From a virus (taxonomy: Duplodnaviria; Heunggongvirae; Uroviricota; Caudoviricetes): 64,000 nucleotides of DNA. The notes under the pieces were generated by a model that saw nothing but the letters and a program-made list of their open reading frames with translations, searched no databases and was not told the origin of the DNA. The stretch lies in the IMG/VR virus record IMGVR_UViG_3300034157_000063. One strand, written 5' to 3'. This document shows, piece by piece, positions 2,955 through 61,584 of the stretch; position 1 is the first letter of the stretch; every line of letters begins with the position of its first letter. A program made the translations under genes and the position numbers.

Positions 2955-3872
2955 ATGATTTTTGAAGCTTTCTCTTTTTCAAGTATTAGAGCATCTATAT
3001 TGAGTGGTGCTCACAGTATGGAAGACCACCATAAAATTAAACTTGAACTTCAACCCGCGAACATTATTGATTCGTTAGGGGTCAACACATTCTGCTTTTA
3101 TGTAAACAAATCTTTTGGTATTCTTAAGAATGACTTCTTGAAGATCGTTAAAGCTCTTAAAAAGAAAAAGCTGAACTTCGATGTTAAGTCTGATTCACTT
3201 CGTGAATTGAGTGATTTCCATATCATTAAATTTACGGGTGGTGCTGATCTTATTGAATACTTTCAAAACGTGAGCATGAACAACACGAATGAACGACCCA
3301 GAATCTCGGAGAACCAGCTTCTTCGTGAATGCACTATCGTTCGTCTTCAAGACTGCAAAGATTACTACGCCAAAAACAAACCTAAAATTTTGTGCCTCGA
3401 TGTTGAAATTCAAACTAACACTGATAAAGAGTTCAAACCTACCGAATTTGGTTTGGTTTATTTCGATGGTGAAAAAGAGATCTACGAACACTTTTTGATT
3501 GAAGAATTCTACAAATTAAAAGTGGGTGGTGCATTACAACGCAAGTTCCATTTTGGTAAAACAAGTATTGTAAGCTATGAAGAGTTTGTGGATATCATGG
3601 CGAGCTATCTTGATAAGACTGATATGTTCTTGGCTCACTCTGTTAACTCTGAAAATCACTATTTGAGTCGTGCTGGTATTTCATTGTCTTACTTTGTAGA
3701 CGCGGTGGTTGATACTCAATTCTTGTATAAGGATTATGACAGCACGCATGTGAAACCAGTTTCATTGATTGATATGTTAACTTACTTGAAAATTCCATTC
3801 AAGAACTTGCACAACAGTGGTAACGACGCAGCCTTTACTTGGTTAGCATTCAAAAAAATCATGGACCTTTAA
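2955..3872 (+). CDS. DEDDh 3'-5' exonuclease (DnaQ-like)
   Basis: ExoI LCLDVE, FLAHS, DTQ and ExoIII LHNSGNDA motifs. Confidence 0.8.
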   Translation: MIFEAFSFSSIRASILSGAHSMEDHHKIKLELQPANIIDSLGVNTFCFYVNKSFGILKNDFLKIVKALKKKKLNFDVKSDSLRELSDFHIIKFTGGADLIEYFQNVSMNNTNERPRISENQLLRECTIVRLQDCKDYYAKNKPKILCLDVEIQTNTDKEFKPTEFGLVYFDGEKEIYEHFLIEEFYKLKVGGALQRKFHFGKTSIVSYEEFVDIMASYLDKTDMFLAHSVNSENHYLSRAGISLSYFVDAVVDTQFLYKDYDSTHVKPVSLIDMLTYLKIPFKNLHNSGNDAAFTWLAFKKIMDL

Positions 3873-11981: not shown

Positions 11982-12776
11982 TTAGCTTGACATGGACATT
12001 TTTCTGTTTTCAATGGCTGTGTCATAAAATGGCGTGCCATGTGTTGAGTTATCGACCAGAGCTTTAATGAGGTTTTTTGAAGCTGATGTTGGATCAACTT
12101 TAACCATTTGTTCAAAGTCATTACGAATGCCTTCAACAGTGTGGAAAACATCCTTCCAACTAACAAACCAGTCATCTTTATTGTTGAAGTTCCTAATCCA
12201 ATCTTCTGTTTGAATAGTTGACTCCAAACCAGCACGAAGTTGTTCACGACGAGCAGTAATCTTCTTGAATACTTCATTATGATCTTTAAACATTAAAATA
12301 TCATCAGTCACATTAACCGGCTCATAACCAAACATTTCAATCACATCATCACACCAGATGCGTTGTTTGAAGGTGTGCTGTCTCAATTCAGGCTCAAAGT
12401 AATAGATAAACACTTCCGACATAAGCGAAGCTTCCAGTTCGTTTTGCCACATGGCTGCTTTCCACTCTTCAAAGTTATCAAACTTCTTCTCAGGGAACGA
12501 GATAAGGTGATAGAACTCATGAAAGAAGAACAAGTCATGGATATATGGGTTTTCATATTGACGATGACCGATGTGGTAGAACCATAGGAACATGTGTTTA
12601 TATTCCAAGTCATTAGAGTAATCGAATACAAACAAACCTTTTTCTTTAAGTCGAGTAATCATGAGATCAACGACTGATCCTTCTTTCTTTTGAAGGTTTT
12701 TGAAGAAATCTGTTTTCCAGTTATTATAGATAAAGTCATCCATATTTTCACTTGATACAAATTGAATGTTATTCAT
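11982..12776 (-). CDS. HExxH-motif putative metalloprotein
   Basis: FFHEFYH followed by ELEASLMSE; overlaps the end of the aminotransferase gene. Confidence 0.55.
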   Translation of the reverse strand: MNNIQFVSSENMDDFIYNNWKTDFFKNLQKKEGSVVDLMITRLKEKGLFVFDYSNDLEYKHMFLWFYHIGHRQYENPYIHDLFFFHEFYHLISFPEKKFDNFEEWKAAMWQNELEASLMSEVFIYYFEPELRQHTFKQRIWCDDVIEMFGYEPVNVTDDILMFKDHNEVFKKITARREQLRAGLESTIQTEDWIRNFNNKDDWFVSWKDVFHTVEGIRNDFEQMVKVDPTSASKNLIKALVDNSTHGTPFYDTAIENRKMSMSS

Positions 12777-23226: not shown

Positions 23227-23378
23227 ATTTTTCAACATCCTCTACACGGCTCTATTTACTGGCATTCTCAATTACCAGTAAATAGAAAGTGTTACTAAAT
23301 GCACATTTTAAAATAATTTTTGTTGACTTCTATATAAGTTGTGGCATTATGTCATCAAATTTTAGAGGATGTCTTAAT

Positions 23379-25031
23379 ATGAAACTGTTTAATGATTTAG
23401 GTATAAAATGGAAGATACAAATTGCATTTCTTGCTGTATCTTTGATTATCATGTCTGCTTTTAGCTATTTTTATTATTCATATGCCGTAAAAAGTGAATT
23501 AGGCAATATGGATAATAAACTAGAGTTTGCTACTAAATATTTTAATGAAATCATTAACGAACCATTTATTGATAGTGTTATTAATCATAATGATATAGAT
23601 GTTAATTTATCTCATCAAAAATCTATGCAATTAACGAAATTTGTTACTGAGTTAGAAATACCTTACTTTTATGCTATATTTATTGATAAAGATGGCAAAT
23701 CAAAATACATCACCTCTAATTTAACGGACAAAGAAATTAGTGATGAGTCTATACATTATACGGCAACACCTTATGATGAACCTGAAACAGAAAAGTTTAT
23801 CAGACAAGTATTAAACACAAACATTCAAGCCACCGAAGAATATAGTTCAAAAACAGGTGATTTTAGAACATTATATGTTCCTAAAAAAACATTGGCTGGT
23901 AACCGATATGTGGTAGCTGCAGATATTAATCTATCTGATGTTCAAGGTGTTAAAGAACGTATTATTATGACCGTAGCTATCATTTTTGCTATTGCTATTA
24001 TATTCATTAACATTGTAGCTTATTTCCTTGGTAGATTAATTACCGCTCCTATCCTTGAAATGGTAAAAGTTTTTGAACAGCTAGGTTCTGGTAATGCTGA
24101 TTTAACTTATAAGATACCTGTGAAATTTAATGATGAAAGCGGTCAAATGGCTCGTAATTTCAATTTGTTCATCGCAACACTTAGAGATATGGTTGATTCG
24201 ATTAAAACGAACACGCATGAGCTTACAACAGGTCTTGTTGACATTAATGGATTGATGAATAAATTGTTGGTAGATTCCCAAGGACAATCAGACAGAGCCA
24301 CGGCTTCTGCAGCAACAATAGAAGAGTTAACTACAAGTATGGGTAGTATTTCATTCAGCACTGACACTACGACTAAATCCGTAGAGAACGTAAATGAATT
24401 GACAAGTGAAAGTTCAAAGTCAGTTAAGTTGTTGAGTTCAGAAGTAGCAGACATCACTACATCAGCTCAGGATCTTTCAGGATTGATCCATAATTTGGAA
24501 GTTAAATCCCTTGATATTTCAAAAATTGTTACTGTTATTCATGGCATTGCTGATCAAACAAACTTATTGGCTCTCAATGCTTCAATTGAAGCTGCACGAG
24601 CAGGTGAACATGGAAGAGGTTTTGCGGTAGTGGCAGAAGAAGTTCGTAACTTGGCTGGTAAAACAGCAGAAGCTACGTTAAATATATCTAAAACTATTAA
24701 AGATATTAGCAATCAGATTGTGAGTGCTACAAAGAAAATGGACGAAACTAACGACAAAGTTGAAAATGGCGTTAAGCTTGCTGGTAATGTGTTAGTTCAG
24801 ATCAGTTCAATTCAAACGGATATGAAGGCAGTCTTTGATAATGTTCAAGTGATCAACTTAGCGACCAAAGAACAGTCTATTGCTACCCAAGACATGGCTC
24901 GATCTGCAGAGGAAGGCAGTAATAGTTCTATTCGTAGTCAAAAAATTGTTGAGCAAACAGAAGAAACAGTTTCAAAACTTCAAGATAAAGCTAACAAGCT
25001 TAATGAATTGGTATCTCAGTTTAATACTTGA
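23379..25031 (+). CDS. Methyl-accepting chemotaxis protein
   Basis: Two TM segments flanking a periplasmic sensor, HAMP domain, signalling-tip motif [37 protein letters not shown]; start revised to MKLFND after GAGGA. Confidence 0.95.
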
Positions 25032-28344: not shown

Positions 28345-29838
28345 ATGACTATTACTCGTGTGCAATATCCAGAAATCTGTGTTGAAACGGCCAAAGAAAT
28401 GGCTAAGAACTATTTCGTTCTACACCGTAATGAAGTGGACTTTCTCTCCCGTGGCTTCAAAGCTATCCCTTCTTTGTTTAAATTTGCGTTTATGAAAGAA
28501 ATGGTTGATGGTGCCACAGAACAAAACACTGCAGTTATGGCTAGAATTGACGCTATTCTCGAAGCGTTTGAAACCAATGATATGGCAGGCACTCTTGAAA
28601 CCAACGTGGCTATTCAAGAAGAATTTGGCACCGTAGAAAACTTCCTTAAAGTGGTTGAAGAAGCGAAACAACTAAAACCTGTTTATGCCGATAGATTGAA
28701 CCCTACATTTGACTCACCAGTCGCTTTGCCAGTGGTTGTTATGTTCTCCGGTGAAGACCTTTACAAAAAAGGTAGCAAAGTTCTTTTGAATACTTTCACC
28801 CTTGGTACTGGTTTGGAAACTGATGATGGCATGACTTATCACTTCCAAGGCACTTACCGCGACATGATTACCACTTTGTCTAAGGTTGGTTTCGTTTATG
28901 ATGACGTTAACTGTGCATTGAAGCCGTTCTTTGGTGAAGTTGAAATTACTGTGACTGAACCAGAAGCGGCAGAACTTGCAGAAATGGAAGTTCGCCACGA
29001 GTTGTCTGAATTCATCCGCGTTGATGATGACTGGGGTATGCGTGACTTCATCTATGACAATGACATTGATACCAGTGTGTTGTTTCGTGATGAAAGCCTT
29101 GTCAGCTACTGCATTGAAATGAACAAACAAGCGTGCTTTATTCAGTCTATGGCTAGTTCAAAAGACCTGTTGAATACGCCAAGTGGTGATTTTGATACTG
29201 CTACAAGTCGTGCGATTTTCTCAGTGGCTTATCGTGGTCTTGATTTTAACCGTTTCCTTGGTGTGTTGGTGAAAAATATCAACTTCAAAGGCAAGCCACA
29301 ATCGACCATTGATGAATTTGTTCGTGAAAGCTTCCATGATCTTCGTCAGGAAATGTCTGTTGATGTGTTTAATCTTTACAAAGACAATATTGATCCAAAA
29401 ATGTTGGCCCTTGCTCTTGTTAAACATAACAACGTCTACCGTATGGAAATTCCAGAAATGGCCGAGATTATCGAAAAGGCGTATGTTGATTACAAAGATG
29501 ACATTCTTGCCATTCCGGGTATGGTTTCACACGTTAACTATTACAAAGAGACACCGCGTTTCATTGAGTGCTTGCGTAATGTTCCAACTGTGATGATCGG
29601 TGAACAGAACGTGTTGTTCTACCTTGACCAAATGAAAGTGGCTCAGGAAGCGGTTGTTGAAGCGGTTCGCGGACAAGACAACGTTGTTGACTTGATTGGT
29701 GGTAAGTTGGCAACCAAGGAAGAACATGCACAAGATAAACTTGATGTAATCAATGGTCACATCAGTTATTTTGAACAGTTTGTTGCTCGCCCTGAACCAG
29801 AGCAGGAAGAAGGTAACATCGGTAGCATGATGGCGTAA
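28345..29838 (+). CDS. Hypothetical protein, 497 aa
   Basis: AGGAG SD, own promoter and terminator; many C-ending codons, as in highly expressed genes. Confidence 0.85.
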   Translation: MTITRVQYPEICVETAKEMAKNYFVLHRNEVDFLSRGFKAIPSLFKFAFMKEMVDGATEQNTAVMARIDAILEAFETNDMAGTLETNVAIQEEFGTVENFLKVVEEAKQLKPVYADRLNPTFDSPVALPVVVMFSGEDLYKKGSKVLLNTFTLGTGLETDDGMTYHFQGTYRDMITTLSKVGFVYDDVNCALKPFFGEVEITVTEPEAAELAEMEVRHELSEFIRVDDDWGMRDFIYDNDIDTSVLFRDESLVSYCIEMNKQACFIQSMASSKDLLNTPSGDFDTATSRAIFSVAYRGLDFNRFLGVLVKNINFKGKPQSTIDEFVRESFHDLRQEMSVDVFNLYKDNIDPKMLALALVKHNNVYRMEIPEMAEIIEKAYVDYKDDILAIPGMVSHVNYYKETPRFIECLRNVPTVMIGEQNVLFYLDQMKVAQEAVVEAVRGQDNVVDLIGGKLATKEEHAQDKLDVINGHISYFEQFVARPEPEQEEGNIGSMMA

Positions 29839-44978: not shown

Positions 44979-46163
44979 CTATTTGTTTTTTAAAGTGTTT
45001 CTTTTTCTTTCTTTTCTTTCTTTGACATCATCTTTAATGTTTTCCATTGTTTCTGGTAGATTATTGATCATGTTATTTAAGAATTTTTTTAATTTGTCCA
45101 TTTCATCATCAACCATTCTTGATCGTTGACTGGATGTTAAAGATTTATCTTTATAAATTTCTCTTAGCTTGTCATTATGACCTTCATAGGTTTCTTTTTG
45201 TTTATAACCAATCATTCTTTTGTAAAAGTCTTTATTTTGTTTGTCCAAATAAGGCGTAATACTCTTTAAGGCGGTATAATCAATAGGCGTAGAATCACGG
45301 TATTTAATGTGGATATCAAAAACATGTGCTATAAGATCATTCGCTATCTTTTTGACTAATTCACGTTGTGGTTTTCTTAATAGCTCGTAATTTTCAAAAA
45401 ATTTAGTGTCTGGCACGTATATTTTTATCGAACTGGATTCTTCACCAAACCTGTGGTGGTCTAATTTAACGATGACAATATTATCTTCTGCAACTAATAA
45501 TTTATCTTTTGTAAATCCTGTTTTCGTCTGGCTGAATTTTTCTAGATACTTGTCTAAGAGTAACTGACAATTAGCATCAGTTATTATTTTATTCTTATTG
45601 ATGATGAGATAGGTGAGTAAATCATCTTCATTTCCAGCATGTGTTTTTACATAGTTATTGACATCAAACTCTTTTGAGCGGACAAGTTCTTTGAAACTTT
45701 TTACTTTAAAGACTTCGCAAGGAATTAATGCATTAGGACGGAACAAGACTTCACTTTCCACTGCTTGGCCGGATAGGTTAACATCCACTACGGTGCCTTT
45801 CTTTGCCGTAGCAGTCAATATAACACCACAGTAGCCCGCGATCTTTTCGCCTTGAACGTTACGCTTTGCTTCTTCTATTACGACTTCCATTGTAGGGAAA
45901 TACGTTTTAGTCGTTGTTGAGAAATCGTAAGCTGTGTCGTAACGTGGTGAGAACCCAGCAGCTTCTGATGATTGATAACCACCAGTAGCCTTTAACTCTT
46001 TTAAAAAGTCTTCATATTTTTCTTTTGTTGAAAAGTTAATTCCACGATATACTGTAATGTCTTCTTCGTTAGGCCATTCAGCAAGCATTTTATTAAAATC
46101 GGATTCAAGATAAATAGGATTTTCGTCTTTTGTGTAACTTCTTAACTTTTGTTCTATGTCCAT
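44979..46163 (-). CDS. Putative ADP-ribosyltransferase (R-S-E clade) with helical C-terminal region
   Basis: TVYRG ... GFS...A..F ... VESEVLF motif order. Confidence 0.65.
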   Translation of the reverse strand: MDIEQKLRSYTKDENPIYLESDFNKMLAEWPNEEDITVYRGINFSTKEKYEDFLKELKATGGYQSSEAAGFSPRYDTAYDFSTTTKTYFPTMEVVIEEAKRNVQGEKIAGYCGVILTATAKKGTVVDVNLSGQAVESEVLFRPNALIPCEVFKVKSFKELVRSKEFDVNNYVKTHAGNEDDLLTYLIINKNKIITDANCQLLLDKYLEKFSQTKTGFTKDKLLVAEDNIVIVKLDHHRFGEESSSIKIYVPDTKFFENYELLRKPQRELVKKIANDLIAHVFDIHIKYRDSTPIDYTALKSITPYLDKQNKDFYKRMIGYKQKETYEGHNDKLREIYKDKSLTSSQRSRMVDDEMDKLKKFLNNMINNLPETMENIKDDVKERKERKRNTLKNK

Positions 46164-46284
46164 TGTCAATAAGATCTAGTGTTTGTATTACTATTGTATC
46201 ATTGATTGATTTTTTTGAAAGAACTGTTGTGTTATACTTTATAATCTTATATAATAAAACCATTTAAATGAGGTTTAAATAGTT

Positions 46285-46992: not shown

Positions 46993-47062
46993 TCATTTAA
47001 TGGTTGACCAAAGGTTAGTATTATGGTATTATAATCTCTCTCAAATAAAAGGATAAATTATC

Positions 47063-47095
47063 ATGAAACTCCAAAGTCTACGACAACGGCATTAA
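47063..47095 (+). promoter_or_regulatory. Leader ORF MKLQSLRQRH* forming an anti-SD hairpin
   Basis: AAGGA SD, TTGACC-17-TATTAT promoter; AAACTCCA (47066-73) is complementary to TGGAGTTT (47146-53), the SD of the next gene. Confidence 0.7.
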
Positions 47096-47159
47096 ACCTA
47101 AACTTTCGTTTAATTGTATTACATTGTCTTAAATTTAACTAATTATGGAGTTTTAAAAA

Positions 47160-47711
47160 ATGAAACCTATTTATGTCGCAAATTTCGTGGCTAATCCTGA
47201 TGCTGTGTTCAAAAGATTATTGAACGAGTTAGAATGGAAAAGATACGGAAACAAACCTAGAAAAGAATACTACTGCAACGATCACGATGTGCCTTATAGT
47301 TATGGCAATCCCGAGTTTGCGGATACCTATACTAGAAGTCCTTACAGTGATGACATCTTGGATATCAGATACAAGTTGGAAGAAGAATTGAAATCTATTT
47401 TTGATGTCTGCTTTTTAAATTTGTATGATGACTTTGCCGGTCACATTGGATGGCACGCTGATGACAGTCCAGAAATGGACCCTGACAGACCTATTGTCAC
47501 TGTTAGTTTGGGTGCTGAAAGAGAAATCTGGTTTAAAGAAAGACCTTCTGAAACCAGTTCTAAGGAAGTCACTAAGATTAAGTTAGGACATGGGAGTGCT
47601 TGTATCATGCCAGCCGGTATGCAAGCTACAGACTTACACAGAATCCCTAAGAATGACAGACCTTGTGGTGAAAGGGTTAGTTTGACTTACAGAGGTTATA
47701 AGTTCATATGA
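47160..47711 (+). CDS. AlkB-family 2OG-Fe(II) dioxygenase (ALKBH2/3-like)
   Basis: FLNLY...IGWHADD...VSLGAER...HRIPK...RVSLTYR (HxD...H, RxxxxxR). Confidence 0.92.
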   Translation: MKPIYVANFVANPDAVFKRLLNELEWKRYGNKPRKEYYCNDHDVPYSYGNPEFADTYTRSPYSDDILDIRYKLEEELKSIFDVCFLNLYDDFAGHIGWHADDSPEMDPDRPIVTVSLGAEREIWFKERPSETSSKEVTKIKLGHGSACIMPAGMQATDLHRIPKNDRPCGERVSLTYRGYKFI

Positions 47712-51938: not shown

Positions 51939-53855
51939 TTAACTTACACCGTAGTAACTTAGGAAGTTATCAATACTCACTTCTTGACCACGGAAGTTAT
52001 CATACAATTTCAATGGTTCAACACTGCTACCTTTTTCCAAGAATTCTTTCTTGAATTTGATAGCATTCTTTTCTTTGTCTTCAATGACATGCATAAACGC
52101 ATCGACTGAGTAAATATCAGCCCACATGTAACCATAATAACCAGCACTGTAACCACCCGCGAAGATGTGACCGAACGTATTTGGGAAAGAAGTGTCGTCA
52201 TCCACTTTTGATGGAAGAATTTCATTCGCAATAGATTTGTAGAAATCAGTAATATCACCTTCAAACGTGTTATAAAGGTTAATATCGAAGGTGGCAAGCA
52301 CCAACTGACGGGCATACATACTACCTACGTTGTAGTTCTTTGAAGCAATGATTGAATTCAGCATAACTTGTGGTATTTTCTCGCCTGTTTCAACATGCCC
52401 AGACACTGACATCAAAAACTCAGGATCGTAGGCGAATTGCTCAAGCATCTGACTTGGGATTTCAACCGCATCACGAGCCATGCCGCTGGTACCGGCCATA
52501 TCCGAATATTGAACCTTGGAACTGAAGTGGTGAACCGCATGACCCATTTCGTGTAAGAAGGTGACAATCTCATCAATATCCATACCGATATCTTTCTTGT
52601 TGATGTTGCAGCAAAGCGAAACAAGACCTACTTCGTCCAGCGTTACACCAGAAAGACAGGATACCCAAGCACCGCTACCTTTCAATTCTCTTTCATACAT
52701 GTCCACAATAAGGCGAGCTTTCAATACATTACCTTCGTACACTTTGAAACATTCACTGTCTTCATAAGGAAGGTCAAAAGCTTCTGTATCTTTGACAAAA
52801 GTAAAACCAAACAGTTTTTCAACCAGATTAAAAACACCTTCAAATACACGATCCTTATTGAAATATGGACGTTCCATGTTGAATTCATAGTTAAGCAATT
52901 TTTCTTTCTTGATGTTGCCATAGAAACCACGATTCCATTTTGGAATGGTATCCACACCAAATTCAGTTTTAGCAAACTGATTAAGGGCTTCGTATTCTAC
53001 TTTTGCCAACGGTTGCATTTTTTCTTTGATACGACCAAGGAAGTTGGTTACAACATCGTAAGTGGGAGCCATACGATCTTCTAACGCCATTTCAGTGTAA
53101 GATTTATAACCCATGATAGCGGCAATCTGTTGTTTCAAGCTCAAAATCTTTTTAGTCACTTCGGTGTTATCAAAGTTTGAACGTGGTGACCCCGGATATC
53201 CACTGGCTTCATAGATGATTTGTTTCAGTTCATCTGATGGCGATTTAACCATGATGTCACCCATCGCATTCTGGTTGAATTTCATTACCAGTTCGCCATC
53301 AATCTCTTTAAATGATTCAAGGTCTTTTTCTGATAGAGTCGCTTTGACTTCAGTTGTTAGGGTGTAGGACCACTCTTTTTTCGAGTCAATGAGGTTTTTG
53401 CTGAATAGCATTTGAGCAGTAGATAGCTCTTGGCTAATAGCATTCAGTTCATCCTGCTTGTCTTTTGGCAAATCAATACCAGACTTCTCGAACGCTTCGA
53501 TATAACGTTTTTTAAGACGTTCTTCTGTTTCATTTTCTGTTACCAATGATTTGATAAACTCGTAATGCACAGGGTCTTGGCTAAAAGGGTCAGAGTATTT
53601 TTCATATTCAGTGACCATAAATTCATACAGTTCACTGACTTCATCCGTTTTCTTGACATTTGAGAGGTAGTTGTAACGCAGGAAAATATCAGACATAGCT
53701 TTAGATTGGATATCGCTTTCTTTCATGTAATCATTGAACTTCATGCCTTTGTTATTTTTGATGAAGTCATAAATCCAAGTTTTATAACTTTCGAAGACAG
53801 CGAGAAATGTTTCTTTATCATTTGCTTTTGGTTGAAATAAGTCTTTATTGAACAT
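51939..53855 (-). CDS. prlC: M3-family oligopeptidase A-like metallopeptidase
   Basis: K.SGAW, TFLHEMGHAVH, DAVEIPSQMLE, FGHIFAGGYSAGYYGYMWA. Confidence 0.93.
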   Translation of the reverse strand: MFNKDLFQPKANDKETFLAVFESYKTWIYDFIKNNKGMKFNDYMKESDIQSKAMSDIFLRYNYLSNVKKTDEVSELYEFMVTEYEKYSDPFSQDPVHYEFIKSLVTENETEERLKKRYIEAFEKSGIDLPKDKQDELNAISQELSTAQMLFSKNLIDSKKEWSYTLTTEVKATLSEKDLESFKEIDGELVMKFNQNAMGDIMVKSPSDELKQIIYEASGYPGSPRSNFDNTEVTKKILSLKQQIAAIMGYKSYTEMALEDRMAPTYDVVTNFLGRIKEKMQPLAKVEYEALNQFAKTEFGVDTIPKWNRGFYGNIKKEKLLNYEFNMERPYFNKDRVFEGVFNLVEKLFGFTFVKDTEAFDLPYEDSECFKVYEGNVLKARLIVDMYERELKGSGAWVSCLSGVTLDEVGLVSLCCNINKKDIGMDIDEIVTFLHEMGHAVHHFSSKVQYSDMAGTSGMARDAVEIPSQMLEQFAYDPEFLMSVSGHVETGEKIPQVMLNSIIASKNYNVGSMYARQLVLATFDINLYNTFEGDITDFYKSIANEILPSKVDDDTSFPNTFGHIFAGGYSAGYYGYMWADIYSVDAFMHVIEDKEKNAIKFKKEFLEKGSSVEPLKLYDNFRGQEVSIDNFLSYYGVS

Positions 53856-58992: not shown

Positions 58993-59081
58993 AAATTTAA
59001 AGAAATATCTTTTGTTTATTGACATAATAAGCTTTTTGATGTTATTATGTTATAGACAACTTTTATAAATAGGAGGAAGCT

Positions 59082-59980
59082 ATGTCACAGCTAAACGCAA
59101 TCTAATTATCGAAACATACAAAGACCATTCCAGATTATATGAATTGGACTTTCATATAAATTCATCTGTCAAAAGTCCTGACGATACAACTCTGTTTACC
59201 ACATCTGGTATGCAACAATTTAAACCCTTATATTCTAATCTAGAATACACCAACACATTTACCAACATCCAGCAATGTCTAAGAATTAATGATCTAGACG
59301 AAATAGGCGATGGCACACACTTTTTAAAATTTGAAATGATAGGTTTATTTTCATTTAGACAATGGACACTTAAACAAGCTATTGATTTCATGTATTCCTT
59401 TGTTAACAAGCTGGGTATTATTCCAGACTATGTAACTATTCACCCTGATAAATATGAAGACTGGAAAGACCTTTATTCTGAATATGGCGTTGAAATACGT
59501 TTAGATCCTGAATGTGTCTGGTCAGATGGTAGTATTGGTGGATATTGCACAGAGTTTTACAAGAACGATGTTGAGATAGGGAATATTGTGAATACAATGG
59601 ATACTTGCATAGATGTGGGTTTTGGACTTGAAAGACTGCTTGAAGTGACTGGAAGCTTAAGACCGAAAAGTAAGCTTCAAATCCTTGAAGAAACTGCTTT
59701 ATTATTGATAGACGATGGTGTATTACTTGGTCACAATAAGAAAGAATACATTTTGAAAAAACTAATCACTGAATCTATTTTTCATGGTAGTCAAATAAGT
59801 AATGAATTTTTTGATCGAATTCGTTTCAATCAAGAAAAAGCTTATTCTACTTATATGAGGAAAAGAAACCATAAACGCTTTAAAGATAAAGATTCCATTT
59901 TCTGGATGGATACCTATGGTTTTAATATTAGTCGAATGGATGAATATGTATCAGTGTTTGGAAAAAAAGAAGACTCGTAA
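59082..59980 (+). CDS. Truncated alanyl-tRNA synthetase-like protein (aminoacylation core only); true start probably ATG 59082, joined by a -1 frameshift or indel
   Basis: DTTLFTTSGMQQFK, QCLRINDLDEIG..THF..FEMIGLFSF and IDVGFGLERL match AlaRS motifs. No editing or C-Ala domain. AGGAGG-ATG at 59071/59082 is out of frame with the body ORF (track: 59144..59980). Confidence 0.8.
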
Positions 59981-60456: not shown

Positions 60457-61584
60457 TTAGTAACGGTAGCTTAGGTTAAGGTTGTTCTCGTTAGACCAAA
60501 GTCTAATAAGATTGTCTTCTTCACCCGTTGTTTTTCTGTTTGCAAAACCACGAGCTTGGACAACACAACGGTTGGATCTGACTTCAATGGTGACTTTACG
60601 TTTACCATTGACTTTCAATGACCAGATTGAGGCAGAGCCATCAATGCAAGAGTTTTTGTAGCCAAATACACAATGGTGTTGTTGTTTACCTTCATCCAAG
60701 AGTTCTTTGGATGACTTAATTTGTGTGATGGTCCATTCTTCTGCGTTATATTCATCTTTACGTTTGGTCAAGCTGAAATCTTTAAAATCATGCCCAGCCC
60801 AAGTGAATGAACCCATCTTTTTGGAACGACGAAGGTCATAGTGCCAGTCATGCATTCTCTTGGTGAGTGAGGCCAATGTCCATCCATTACCGAAAATATT
60901 GAAATTGTTGTTTTCGAGTTTTTGTGCGTTGATAAAGTCTACCAAGTCGTTAATTTGTTCAACGGTTTCTGGTGTTTTACCTTCTTGGGAGAAGAACTTA
61001 ACCACATTCTTCCAGAATTCAGTTTCATAACTCTTTTCATTGAGTTTGGATTTAGCAATACGCAACGCTGCACCCGCACGACCATCTTCTGCCAACGCAA
61101 TAGAATAAACGAGAGCTTGATCAATGGTGAGGTCAAAAGGGCAGTTAACAAACAGCAACCCTTCTTTTTTTGTCAAGAATGTTTTCAAATGTTCTTTGTA
61201 AAGAGAACCACCTGTTGCGGCACAGACAAACCATTTACGGTAACGAATGGCTGATGATTTTTTCTTGGTGTTGGTACGACCCGGAATAGATGGGCCATCC
61301 CATACTTGTTCAAGAATTTTTGGCGTTTTGTATTTTGAAAAAAGGAATTTAGCCAACATCCTTACTTTTTTATCACGATTGCTGGATTTTAACGTGTATT
61401 TAAAGCTGTCAGGATCGTTAATGGCGAACGTCAACAATTCAGGCTCAATTTCGCTGATAGCTGGCACTTCTTGTTTGGTTGAGTTTTCGACTTTAATTTT
61501 ATTGGAATGATTGGCAATAGATTGCTTGAATCGCATTTCACTGGATTCAAACTCTTCAATTTTCTTTTTATTTTGCTTACCCAT
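60457..61584 (-). CDS. PcfJ-domain protein
   Basis: ELLDEGKQQHHCVFGY...IWSL...VTIEV...VQARGFANR. Confidence 0.85.
   Translation of the reverse strand: MGKQNKKKIEEFESSEMRFKQSIANHSNKIKVENSTKQEVPAISEIEPELLTFAINDPDSFKYTLKSSNRDKKVRMLAKFLFSKYKTPKILEQVWDGPSIPGRTNTKKKSSAIRYRKWFVCAATGGSLYKEHLKTFLTKKEGLLFVNCPFDLTIDQALVYSIALAEDGRAGAALRIAKSKLNEKSYETEFWKNVVKFFSQEGKTPETVEQINDLVDFINAQKLENNNFNIFGNGWTLASLTKRMHDWHYDLRRSKKMGSFTWAGHDFKDFSLTKRKDEYNAEEWTITQIKSSKELLDEGKQQHHCVFGYKNSCIDGSASIWSLKVNGKRKVTIEVRSNRCVVQARGFANRKTTGEEDNLIRLWSNENNLNLSYRY

Follow-up and report, generated by a model that had tools for sequence, protein, structure and literature searches.

The locus raises the question of why an AlkB-like gene carried on a viral contig should lack CTN and CGN codons and be preceded by a short open reading frame composed mostly of codons that start with C. 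The preliminary description of this DNA had proposed that the leader senses slow decoding, that it sequesters the Shine-Dalgarno (SD) sequence of the downstream gene in a hairpin, and that the gene was recoded to remain translatable when the leader stalls. The window, meaning the whole stretch of 64,000 nucleotides that was analyzed, has a GC content of 32%, contains mostly ORFans and paralogues along with three tRNAs, a chemoreceptor, and a partial AlaRS, and is read as part of a giant mobile replicon. The features of the locus are collected in Table 1.

Table 1. Features of the leader and the AlkB-like gene, in positions of the window
Feature	Coordinates	Strand	Remarks
Sigma70-like promoter	47004..47035	+	-35 TTGACC; extended -10 TATTAT, overlapping TATAAT
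Leader ORF Shine-Dalgarno	47048..47053	+	Read from sequence
Leader ORF (sensor)	47063..47095	+	10 sense codons, 7/10 C-starting, own SD
Anti-SD arm (leader codons 1-4)	47064..47073	+	Predicted pairing with 47146-47155
Sensor core	47078..47092	+	Uninterrupted run of five codons with an initial C: Leu CTA, Arg CGA, Gln CAA, Arg CGG, His CAT
Inner stems of leader hairpin, variable loop	47082..47128	+	47082-86/47124-28 and 47092-97/47108-13 in MFE fold
SD region of AlkB-like gene, GGAG 47147-47150	47146..47155	+	Predicted to be sequestered without a ribosome on the leader
ALKBH2/3-like 2OG-Fe(II) dioxygenase gene	47160..47711	+	183 aa; Pfam 2OG-FeII_Oxy_2; PHROG 21963

A leader made of ATG and mostly C-starting codons is present as first described and has its own SD. 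Of the window's 35 short ORFs preceded by an SD, it has the highest C-start fraction (0.78; the next is 0.40). The promoter matches the consensus at 10 of 12 positions and carries a TG, and a TTGAC..TA(T)TAT/TATAAT pair stands at the equivalent site in most of the leader-bearing relatives described below, where the leader ATG is preceded by an AGGA, GAGG, GGAG, or AGG motif in 12 of 12. An origin of the leader as the frameshifted remnant of an NNC-rich frame was ruled out, since what is conserved is the C-first frame together with its SD and ATG. A search of the leader RNA with Rfam covariance models gave no match at the gathering score and one chance hit (E value of 0.67), and leader DNA patterns run against viral contigs returned either 113 hits or none, with no AlkB gene near the retrieved loci.

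In the AlkB-like gene, all 12 leucines are encoded by TTA or TTG and all 12 arginines by AGA or AGG, while glutamine occurs once and histidine is mostly CAC. The window background uses CTN at 40% and CGN at 49%, against which both absences are significant (P = 0.0022 for CTN and 0.0003 for CGN), and the joint absence of CTN and CGN has a probability of 2.2e-5 against the immediate neighbors. No similarly purged gene was found elsewhere in the window. The recoding that had been claimed, with a single glutamine and without CTN or CGN where these are common nearby, was thus confirmed by codon usage tests against the window and the neighbors, and the purge is shared by relatives. Bias toward optimal codons of highly expressed genes was ruled out as its origin: the most biased genes of the window prefer CGT (66%) and use CTN (57%). 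Five window genes (2955-3872, 11982-12776, 28345-29838, 51939-53855, and 60457-61584) have a distinct codon style, with a GC3 of ~0.39 and a preference for CGT and CTT; they are probably highly expressed, and matches were found only for an M3 peptidase and a PcfJ-like tail.

The arrangement was compared across 12 leader-bearing relatives (the window, L037, L038, L039, L001, L003, L040, L122, L126, L128, L130, and L253), which share 57 to 100% protein identity and lie on contigs of up to 1.9 Mb. All 12 have an SD-led leader ORF of 10 to 31 codons with an in-frame run of three to five C-starting codons at a varying distance from the ATG; CGA CAA occurs in 11 and CTA CGA CAA in 9 of them. Over 206 leader codons, which come from kin and are therefore not independent, C occupies 43% of first, 8% of second, and 10% of third positions; among the 88 C-starting codons a single one is a proline codon (CCN), and arginine is written CGN 19 times and AGR twice. 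The 12 genes, whose counts are likewise not independent, hold 3 CTN among 156 leucine codons and 1 CGN among 135 arginine codons, all four exceptions (3 CTT and 1 CGT) being in L130. Glutamine is found once, at an invariant residue, in 12 of 12 genes, against a family median of 5. Histidine is CAC in 47 of 64 instances, compared with ~19% in ordinary genes; Tyr, Asn, Asp, and Phe show no comparable shift to C-ending codons, and proline is unreduced (12 versus 13). A purge like that of the AlkB-like gene was seen in none of 106 neighboring genes of the clade.

In a quick tree, the 12 leader-bearers fall within one clade of 15 (SH-aLRT 95), in which the leaderless members L007 (sister to L130), L125 (sister to L126), and L123 occupy separate places. 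Together these three genes use CTN in 18 of 43 and CGN in 23 of 38 instances, the CTN/CGN use of L123 still being below its background, and in L123 and L125 a promoter-like site runs straight to the SD of the gene. The contrasts between leader-bearing and leaderless genes all go in the predicted direction and, with n = 3, are too few for a formal test. Histidine codons show a similar correspondence: the nine leaders with CAT precede CAC-rich genes, and two of the three without CAT precede CAT-rich genes (5 of 8 in L122 and 6 of 7 in L253); L128 has a leader without CAT, yet its gene prefers CAC. Outside the clade, L042 is purged and has no leader, and several distant leaderless members avoid CTN (L046, 0/12 versus 0.73; L010, 0/14; L025, 0/14; L071, 2/11; and XacN1) in a test that ignores gene-to-gene variation and so gives weaker evidence.

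The leader and the purged AlkB-like gene are a real, conserved regulatory unit, which is very probably a codon-sensing attenuator. Of the earlier proposal, the architecture of codon-sensing leader, sequestered SD, and recoded gene is supported by the 12 relatives and the three leaderless controls, and the switching is predicted. We regard it as very improbable that no codon sensing takes place at all, i.e., that the gene retains the codon habits of an AGA/TTA-using donor beside an incidental leader, or that the leader acts through its peptide by an R-x-R arrest motif. Low-GC donors do use AGA and TTA, R-x-R is an arrest motif known from macrolide leaders, R-Q-R occurs in several of the leaders studied here, and the hairpin is weak alone. 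However, the purge is absolute over proteins 57 to 70% identical in hosts of 23 to 33% GC, it relaxes with loss of the leader, and it extends to glutamine content and histidine codon choice. Moreover, the preference of the leaders for CGN arises in genomes where AGR is common, and the leaders of L037 and L253 have no R-x-R.

The MFE fold of the window leader holds all three stems listed in Table 1, the outermost of which covers the GGAG of the gene, so that the three-stem hairpin described as burying the downstream SD was recovered in full. Taken alone, this hairpin is not significant (z = -1.66; 13 of 200 shuffles), and its SD duplex of -12.7 kcal/mol lies inside the range of other window genes (median, -10.0; minimum, -16.9). 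Since the hairpin is unremarkable by itself in the window, its support comes from conservation in the relatives. When the folding was extended to these homologues, the strongest partner of the ribosome-binding site (RBS) of the gene within 175 nt upstream coincided in part with the opening codons of the leader in 10 of 12, with sequences that differ between lineages, and the leader/SD duplex averaged -10.8 for own pairs versus -6.0 across groups. The stems of the inner hairpin are kept in L037, L038, and L251, where the sequence and length of the loop vary. With a ribosome on the sensor core, opening the RBS is predicted to cost 6.3 kcal/mol in the window, down from 11.4. This cost is predicted to drop in all 11 leaders tested, by less than 1 kcal/mol in L040 and L128; the lack of a meaningful fall upon stalling in L128 counts against the reading that we prefer below. 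On these models, it is highly likely that the pairing of the RNA and the direction of the switch are as proposed.

A long form of the leader, with an antiterminator and a terminator, is found in four relatives (L039, L001, L003, and L040). In this form, an invariant arm located just past the leader stop codon is able to base-pair with the 5′ strand of a terminator hairpin that is itself invariant and has a U-run. For nascent RNA with a ribosome held early, the predicted probability of the antiterminator is 0.94 to 1.0, and with the ribosome at the stop codon it is 0.0, 0.0, 0.66, and 0.80, which makes for a clean predicted switch in two of the four. Neither terminator nor antiterminator is present in the leader of the window itself. 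The short and long forms are predicted to agree in that slow decoding turns the gene on.

The position of the avoided base is informative about what is sensed. In 11 genes, the five sensor triplets were counted 311 times out of frame, for an expectation of 326, but 17 times in frame, and C at codon positions 2 and 3 of the gene is not reduced (0.19 and 0.14 versus 0.15 and 0.10). Because the avoidance is limited to codon position 1, spares proline, chooses CAC, and moves arginine to AGA, damage to mRNA cytidine or generic alkylation fits badly. Among the triggers first suggested, those on the tRNA side are therefore the ones that fit, and modified C in the mRNA and alkylation of the m1A/m3C type fit badly; C is avoided at the first codon position only, and CAC is preferred over CAT.

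We consider it improbable, for these reasons, that the signal is a lesion on mRNA cytidine (m3C or similar, from alkylation or an mRNA-modifying toxin), with the leader as the damage target and the message as the substrate of the enzyme. The nearest structures, ALKBH2/3, do repair m1A and m3C, and in E. coli, methyl methanesulfonate (MMS) stalls ribosomes and increases the m3C and m1A content of RNA (PMC7521929). The serine codons of the purged genes also lean to AGY (79 of 130), and the out-of-frame counts of CAT and CGA are slightly depressed. Against this, just as the gene has no deficit of C at positions 2 and 3, the leaders have no excess of it there, and the two-C codons CAC and CCN are favored or tolerated. 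Moreover, m1A blocks decoding at any codon position (PMC7521929), yet arginine went to the A-rich AGA. Leaderless homologues show the AGY lean too (TCN, 0.55 versus 0.67), and it was rejected as part of the signal, being largely family-wide. An mRNA lesion would be viable only if the modifier hit the first A-site base alone.

The plainest trait shared by the sensed codons is, we infer, a G at position 36 of the tRNAs that read them, namely, Leu-CUN, Arg-CGN, Gln, and His, with tRNA-Pro (G35-G36) spared. If G36 tRNAs were scarce, the gene would be expected to rely on other Leu and Arg tRNAs, to do without glutamine, and to use the Watson-Crick codon for histidine, which is what is observed. Our main reading, to which we give a probability of roughly 0.55, is that the stalling attenuator senses disabled G36 tRNAs (Leu-NAG, Arg-NCG, Gln, and His) and induces a putative tRNA demethylase, for which the tRNA target and the chemistry are deduced from codons and active site. 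Some observations sit less easily with it. The exemption of proline needs the added assumption that G35 blocks the lesion, L130 keeps its four CTN and CGN codons despite having a leader, L042 is purged without one, and L128 prefers CAC without CAT in its leader.

The same switch could respond instead to a shortage of charged tRNA, through starvation for Leu, Arg, Gln, or His or for nitrogen, or through tRNA cleavage, in which case the enzyme would act downstream and not on the sensed lesion. Glutamine, arginine, and histidine are nitrogen-rich and the enzyme uses 2-oxoglutarate, and the same replicon carries a leader before an alanine-poor AlaRS-like gene. In theory developed for E. coli, the Leu codon CUA is starvation-sensitive and UUA and UUG are insensitive (PMC1183508), as would suit this possibility. 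We nevertheless judge it unlikely: it pools four unrelated amino acids whose sole common trait is C at position 1, the codons for Lys, Glu, Gly, Asn, and Val show no comparable purge, and a demethylase cannot cure starvation or cleavage.

The AlaRS-like locus (59071-59980, + strand) has a 7-codon ORF at 59082 with a strong SD and one Ala codon. The ORF that follows encodes an AlaRS N-terminal domain, has no ATG start, and contains 3 Ala among its 279 aa; across the junction between the two, the -1 frame is open. If the pairing of a leader sensor with a purged gene is a habit of the element, the AlkB-like enzyme would restore the decoding that its leader measures.

The enzyme itself has the double-stranded beta-helix and nucleotide lid of the superfamily and is nearest to ALKBH2/3 (HMM E value of 1e-22). 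Its structure model (pLDDT of 90.5) gives TM scores of 0.85 to 0.87 to 3btz and 8jnk, with the best likeness to ALKBH2/3. The HxD...H iron triad and the NxY and RxxxxxR motifs are all present, and H99, D101, H160, N87, Y89, R172, and R178 are invariant in 24 sequences. The AlkB-like identity was therefore borne out by fold and motifs, and the m1A/m3C-type substrate assumed with it fits badly with the codon pattern and with a serine at the position of AlkB Asp135. This residue, Ser103, lies at HxD+2, a correspondence reached by counting from HxD and by aligning the sequence to ALKBH3 with an HMM. Of 226 family members, 221 have serine there; five ordinary homologues from bacteria or phages have Glu or Asp. 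In AlkB, Asp135 binds cationic m1A and m3C (PMC8508711), and the human enzymes have Glu there, while the engineered AlkB D135S is an efficient m1G demethylase used in tRNA sequencing (PMC7968990). The change at Ser103 hints at m1G rather than m1A/m3C as the substrate; it was absent from the preliminary description, as were the CAC bias of histidine, the exemption of proline, and the terminator/antiterminator form in relatives. Two points weigh against this part of the main reading: D135S also removes m1A and m3C (PMC7968990), and Asp102 is kept beside Ser103 and could serve as an acidic contact.

The activity of D135S extends to m1G37 (PMC7968990), and m1G37 tRNAs read C-starting codons. The leader might then sense loss of TrmD methylation, or the enzyme might erase m1G37 and be recoded to escape its own effect. 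Near homologues of the gene, tRNAs of the element often have A37 in Leu-CAG (4 of 6) and Arg-CCG (6 of 6), with A37 also in some Leu-GAG and Pro (array tRNAs only), and the CARF_2OG model of PADLOC matches the gene product in its 2OG domain (E value of 5e-13). This link to m1G37 is nonetheless highly improbable, as the stall pattern is nearly the reverse: loss of m1G37 stalls ribosomes at all Pro CCN codons, at CGG, and weakly at CUA and not at CGA, CGC, or CGU (PMC8384417), whereas the leaders avoid proline, the gene does not, and the core comprises CGA, CAA, and CAT. In addition, an eraser induced by the stalling that it causes would run away. The CARF_2OG match indicates that related oxygenases are found in defense loci.

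The distribution of the family was also considered. The gene lies on large AT-rich contigs (L037, 1.86 Mb; L040, 1.54 Mb; L253, 1.69 Mb; and P0126, 1.92 Mb), taken together as a group of giant replicons. No close relative of the clade was found among GTDB genomes (best, 54%), the window had no DNA match in named phages, and a single-protein search of viral contigs gave no hit. Distant members (36 to 55%) belong to the jumbo phages SCTP-2, XacN1, Cr30, and Colossus and to megaplasmids. About 15 distant homologue loci are inside or adjoining tRNA arrays, many with a single Gln in the protein; the gene is placed between tRNA genes in L049, L057, L059, L066, L069, L071, L109, L111, L116, L117, and L246, and the array loci, often with one Gln, are mostly from one betaproteobacterial plasmid/phage clade.

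Other neighbors were noted as well. An RNA ligase gene is near the AlkB gene in L007, genes for bS21 and HPF/S30AE are near the leaderless gene in L123 (42-635, - strand), and a tRNA call with a CTA (amber) anticodon stands ~1.3 kb upstream of the distant homologue in L036, possibly a recoded phage. In the window, a 396-aa gene (44979-46169, - strand) has an R-S-E-like pattern and Atlas features that include Mod-type ADP-ribosyltransferase clusters at 0.91, and its product has no Pfam or PHROG match; most members of the clade have a gene of similar size that points away from the AlkB gene in a divergent arrangement. The chemoreceptor is a methyl-accepting chemotaxis protein (23289-25031, + strand) whose closest plasmid matches are below 36% identity.

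The codon logic, Ser103, and the tRNA-array neighborhood together suggest that the enzyme repairs N1-methyl-G in the tRNA anticodon. Under the main reading, a ribosome in undisturbed cells would pass through the leader and depart, and leader codons 1 to 4 would pair again with the gene's SD; for the long form, a ribosome that has reached the stop codon would mask the antiterminator and transcription would end. Upon disabling of the G36 tRNAs, the ribosome would wait on the core codons and hide the anti-SD arm, or the antiterminator would form, and the enzyme would be made. The gene would stay translatable by using other Leu and Arg tRNAs, keeping only the invariant Gln, and using the Watson-Crick His codon. 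The enzyme would then strip the alkyl mark from the tRNA anticodon loop and thereby close the loop. A more specific version, in which the lesion is N1-methyl-G at G36 set by an undescribed host defense toxin and the element answers with a natural m1G tRNA demethylase, is tentative and, as we weigh it, rather unlikely. No m1G36-making enzyme or anticodon-methylating toxin was found in a literature search that covered few subscription journals. If this version were true, the codon pattern would predict both an unknown toxin and its antidote.

The unit can be compared with several known systems. Like the attenuators of the his, leu, and trp operons (PMC1183508), it has a short leader with its own SD and clustered sensitive codons, including CUA as in leuL, and slow decoding is predicted to turn the gene on. 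Four relatives also carry a predicted antiterminator and terminator, whereas the form in the window has no terminator and gates the SD. The leader is not a member of this class: its codons belong to four amino acids united by their first base and not by a pathway, and its target is a dioxygenase. In the translational attenuators of ermC and cat, a ribosome stalled in the leader frees a sequestered SD, and the arrest is set by the nascent peptide together with the antibiotic. The AlkB leader resembles them in an SD-sequestering stem that is predicted to be disrupted by a leader-stalled ribosome and differs in that codon identity is conserved, with synonymous codons fixed and R-x-R in some leaders only.

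A further comparison is with leaders that report TrmD loss, such as leuL and ilvL (PMC8384417), which, like this one, report the state of a tRNA class reading C-starting codons. These rely on Pro CCN, CGG, and CUA, while the AlkB leader excludes proline and uses CGA, CAA, and CAT. Another m1G37/TrmD-sensing leader is mgtL. More broadly, the codons of a leader and those purged from its gene, when read jointly, can reveal the repair target of an uncharacterized gene, and the present leader could be used directly as a reporter in a search for the stress or toxin.

With ALKBH2, ALKBH3, and the bacterial ALKBH2/3-like dioxygenases, the enzyme shares the fold (TM score of 0.87) and the HxD..H and RxxxxxR motifs. 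It differs from them in the serine that replaces the acidic HxD+2 residue, as in engineered E. coli AlkB D135S, and such a natural counterpart could serve tRNA sequencing. It differs also in its setting, mostly in jumbo phages and megaplasmids and often in tRNA arrays, with no adjoining ada: the ORF directly upstream in the window has no family match, in contrast with L256, where ada precedes alkB. The jumbo-phage AlkB-like 2OGFeDO AXQ68776.1 (CcrPW gp237) belongs to the same family, at 36% identity. Its proposed substrate is methylated adenine in DNA, and the proposal came with no mention of a leader, a purge, or a connection to tRNA (Iyer et al. 2021, PMC7824862); the CcrPW gene has no such leader and no purge. 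No leader-controlled, codon-purged AlkB was found in the literature covered, which included few subscription journals, nor was anything on this replicon. On the present reading, an AlkB family that is widespread in jumbo phages and megaplasmids, and that has until now been linked to methyl-adenine in DNA, receives a function open to testing. If it is true, the combination of input and output would be new among attenuators, the input being neither an amino acid nor a drug but damage to tRNAs of one structural class, and the output an RNA-repair enzyme.
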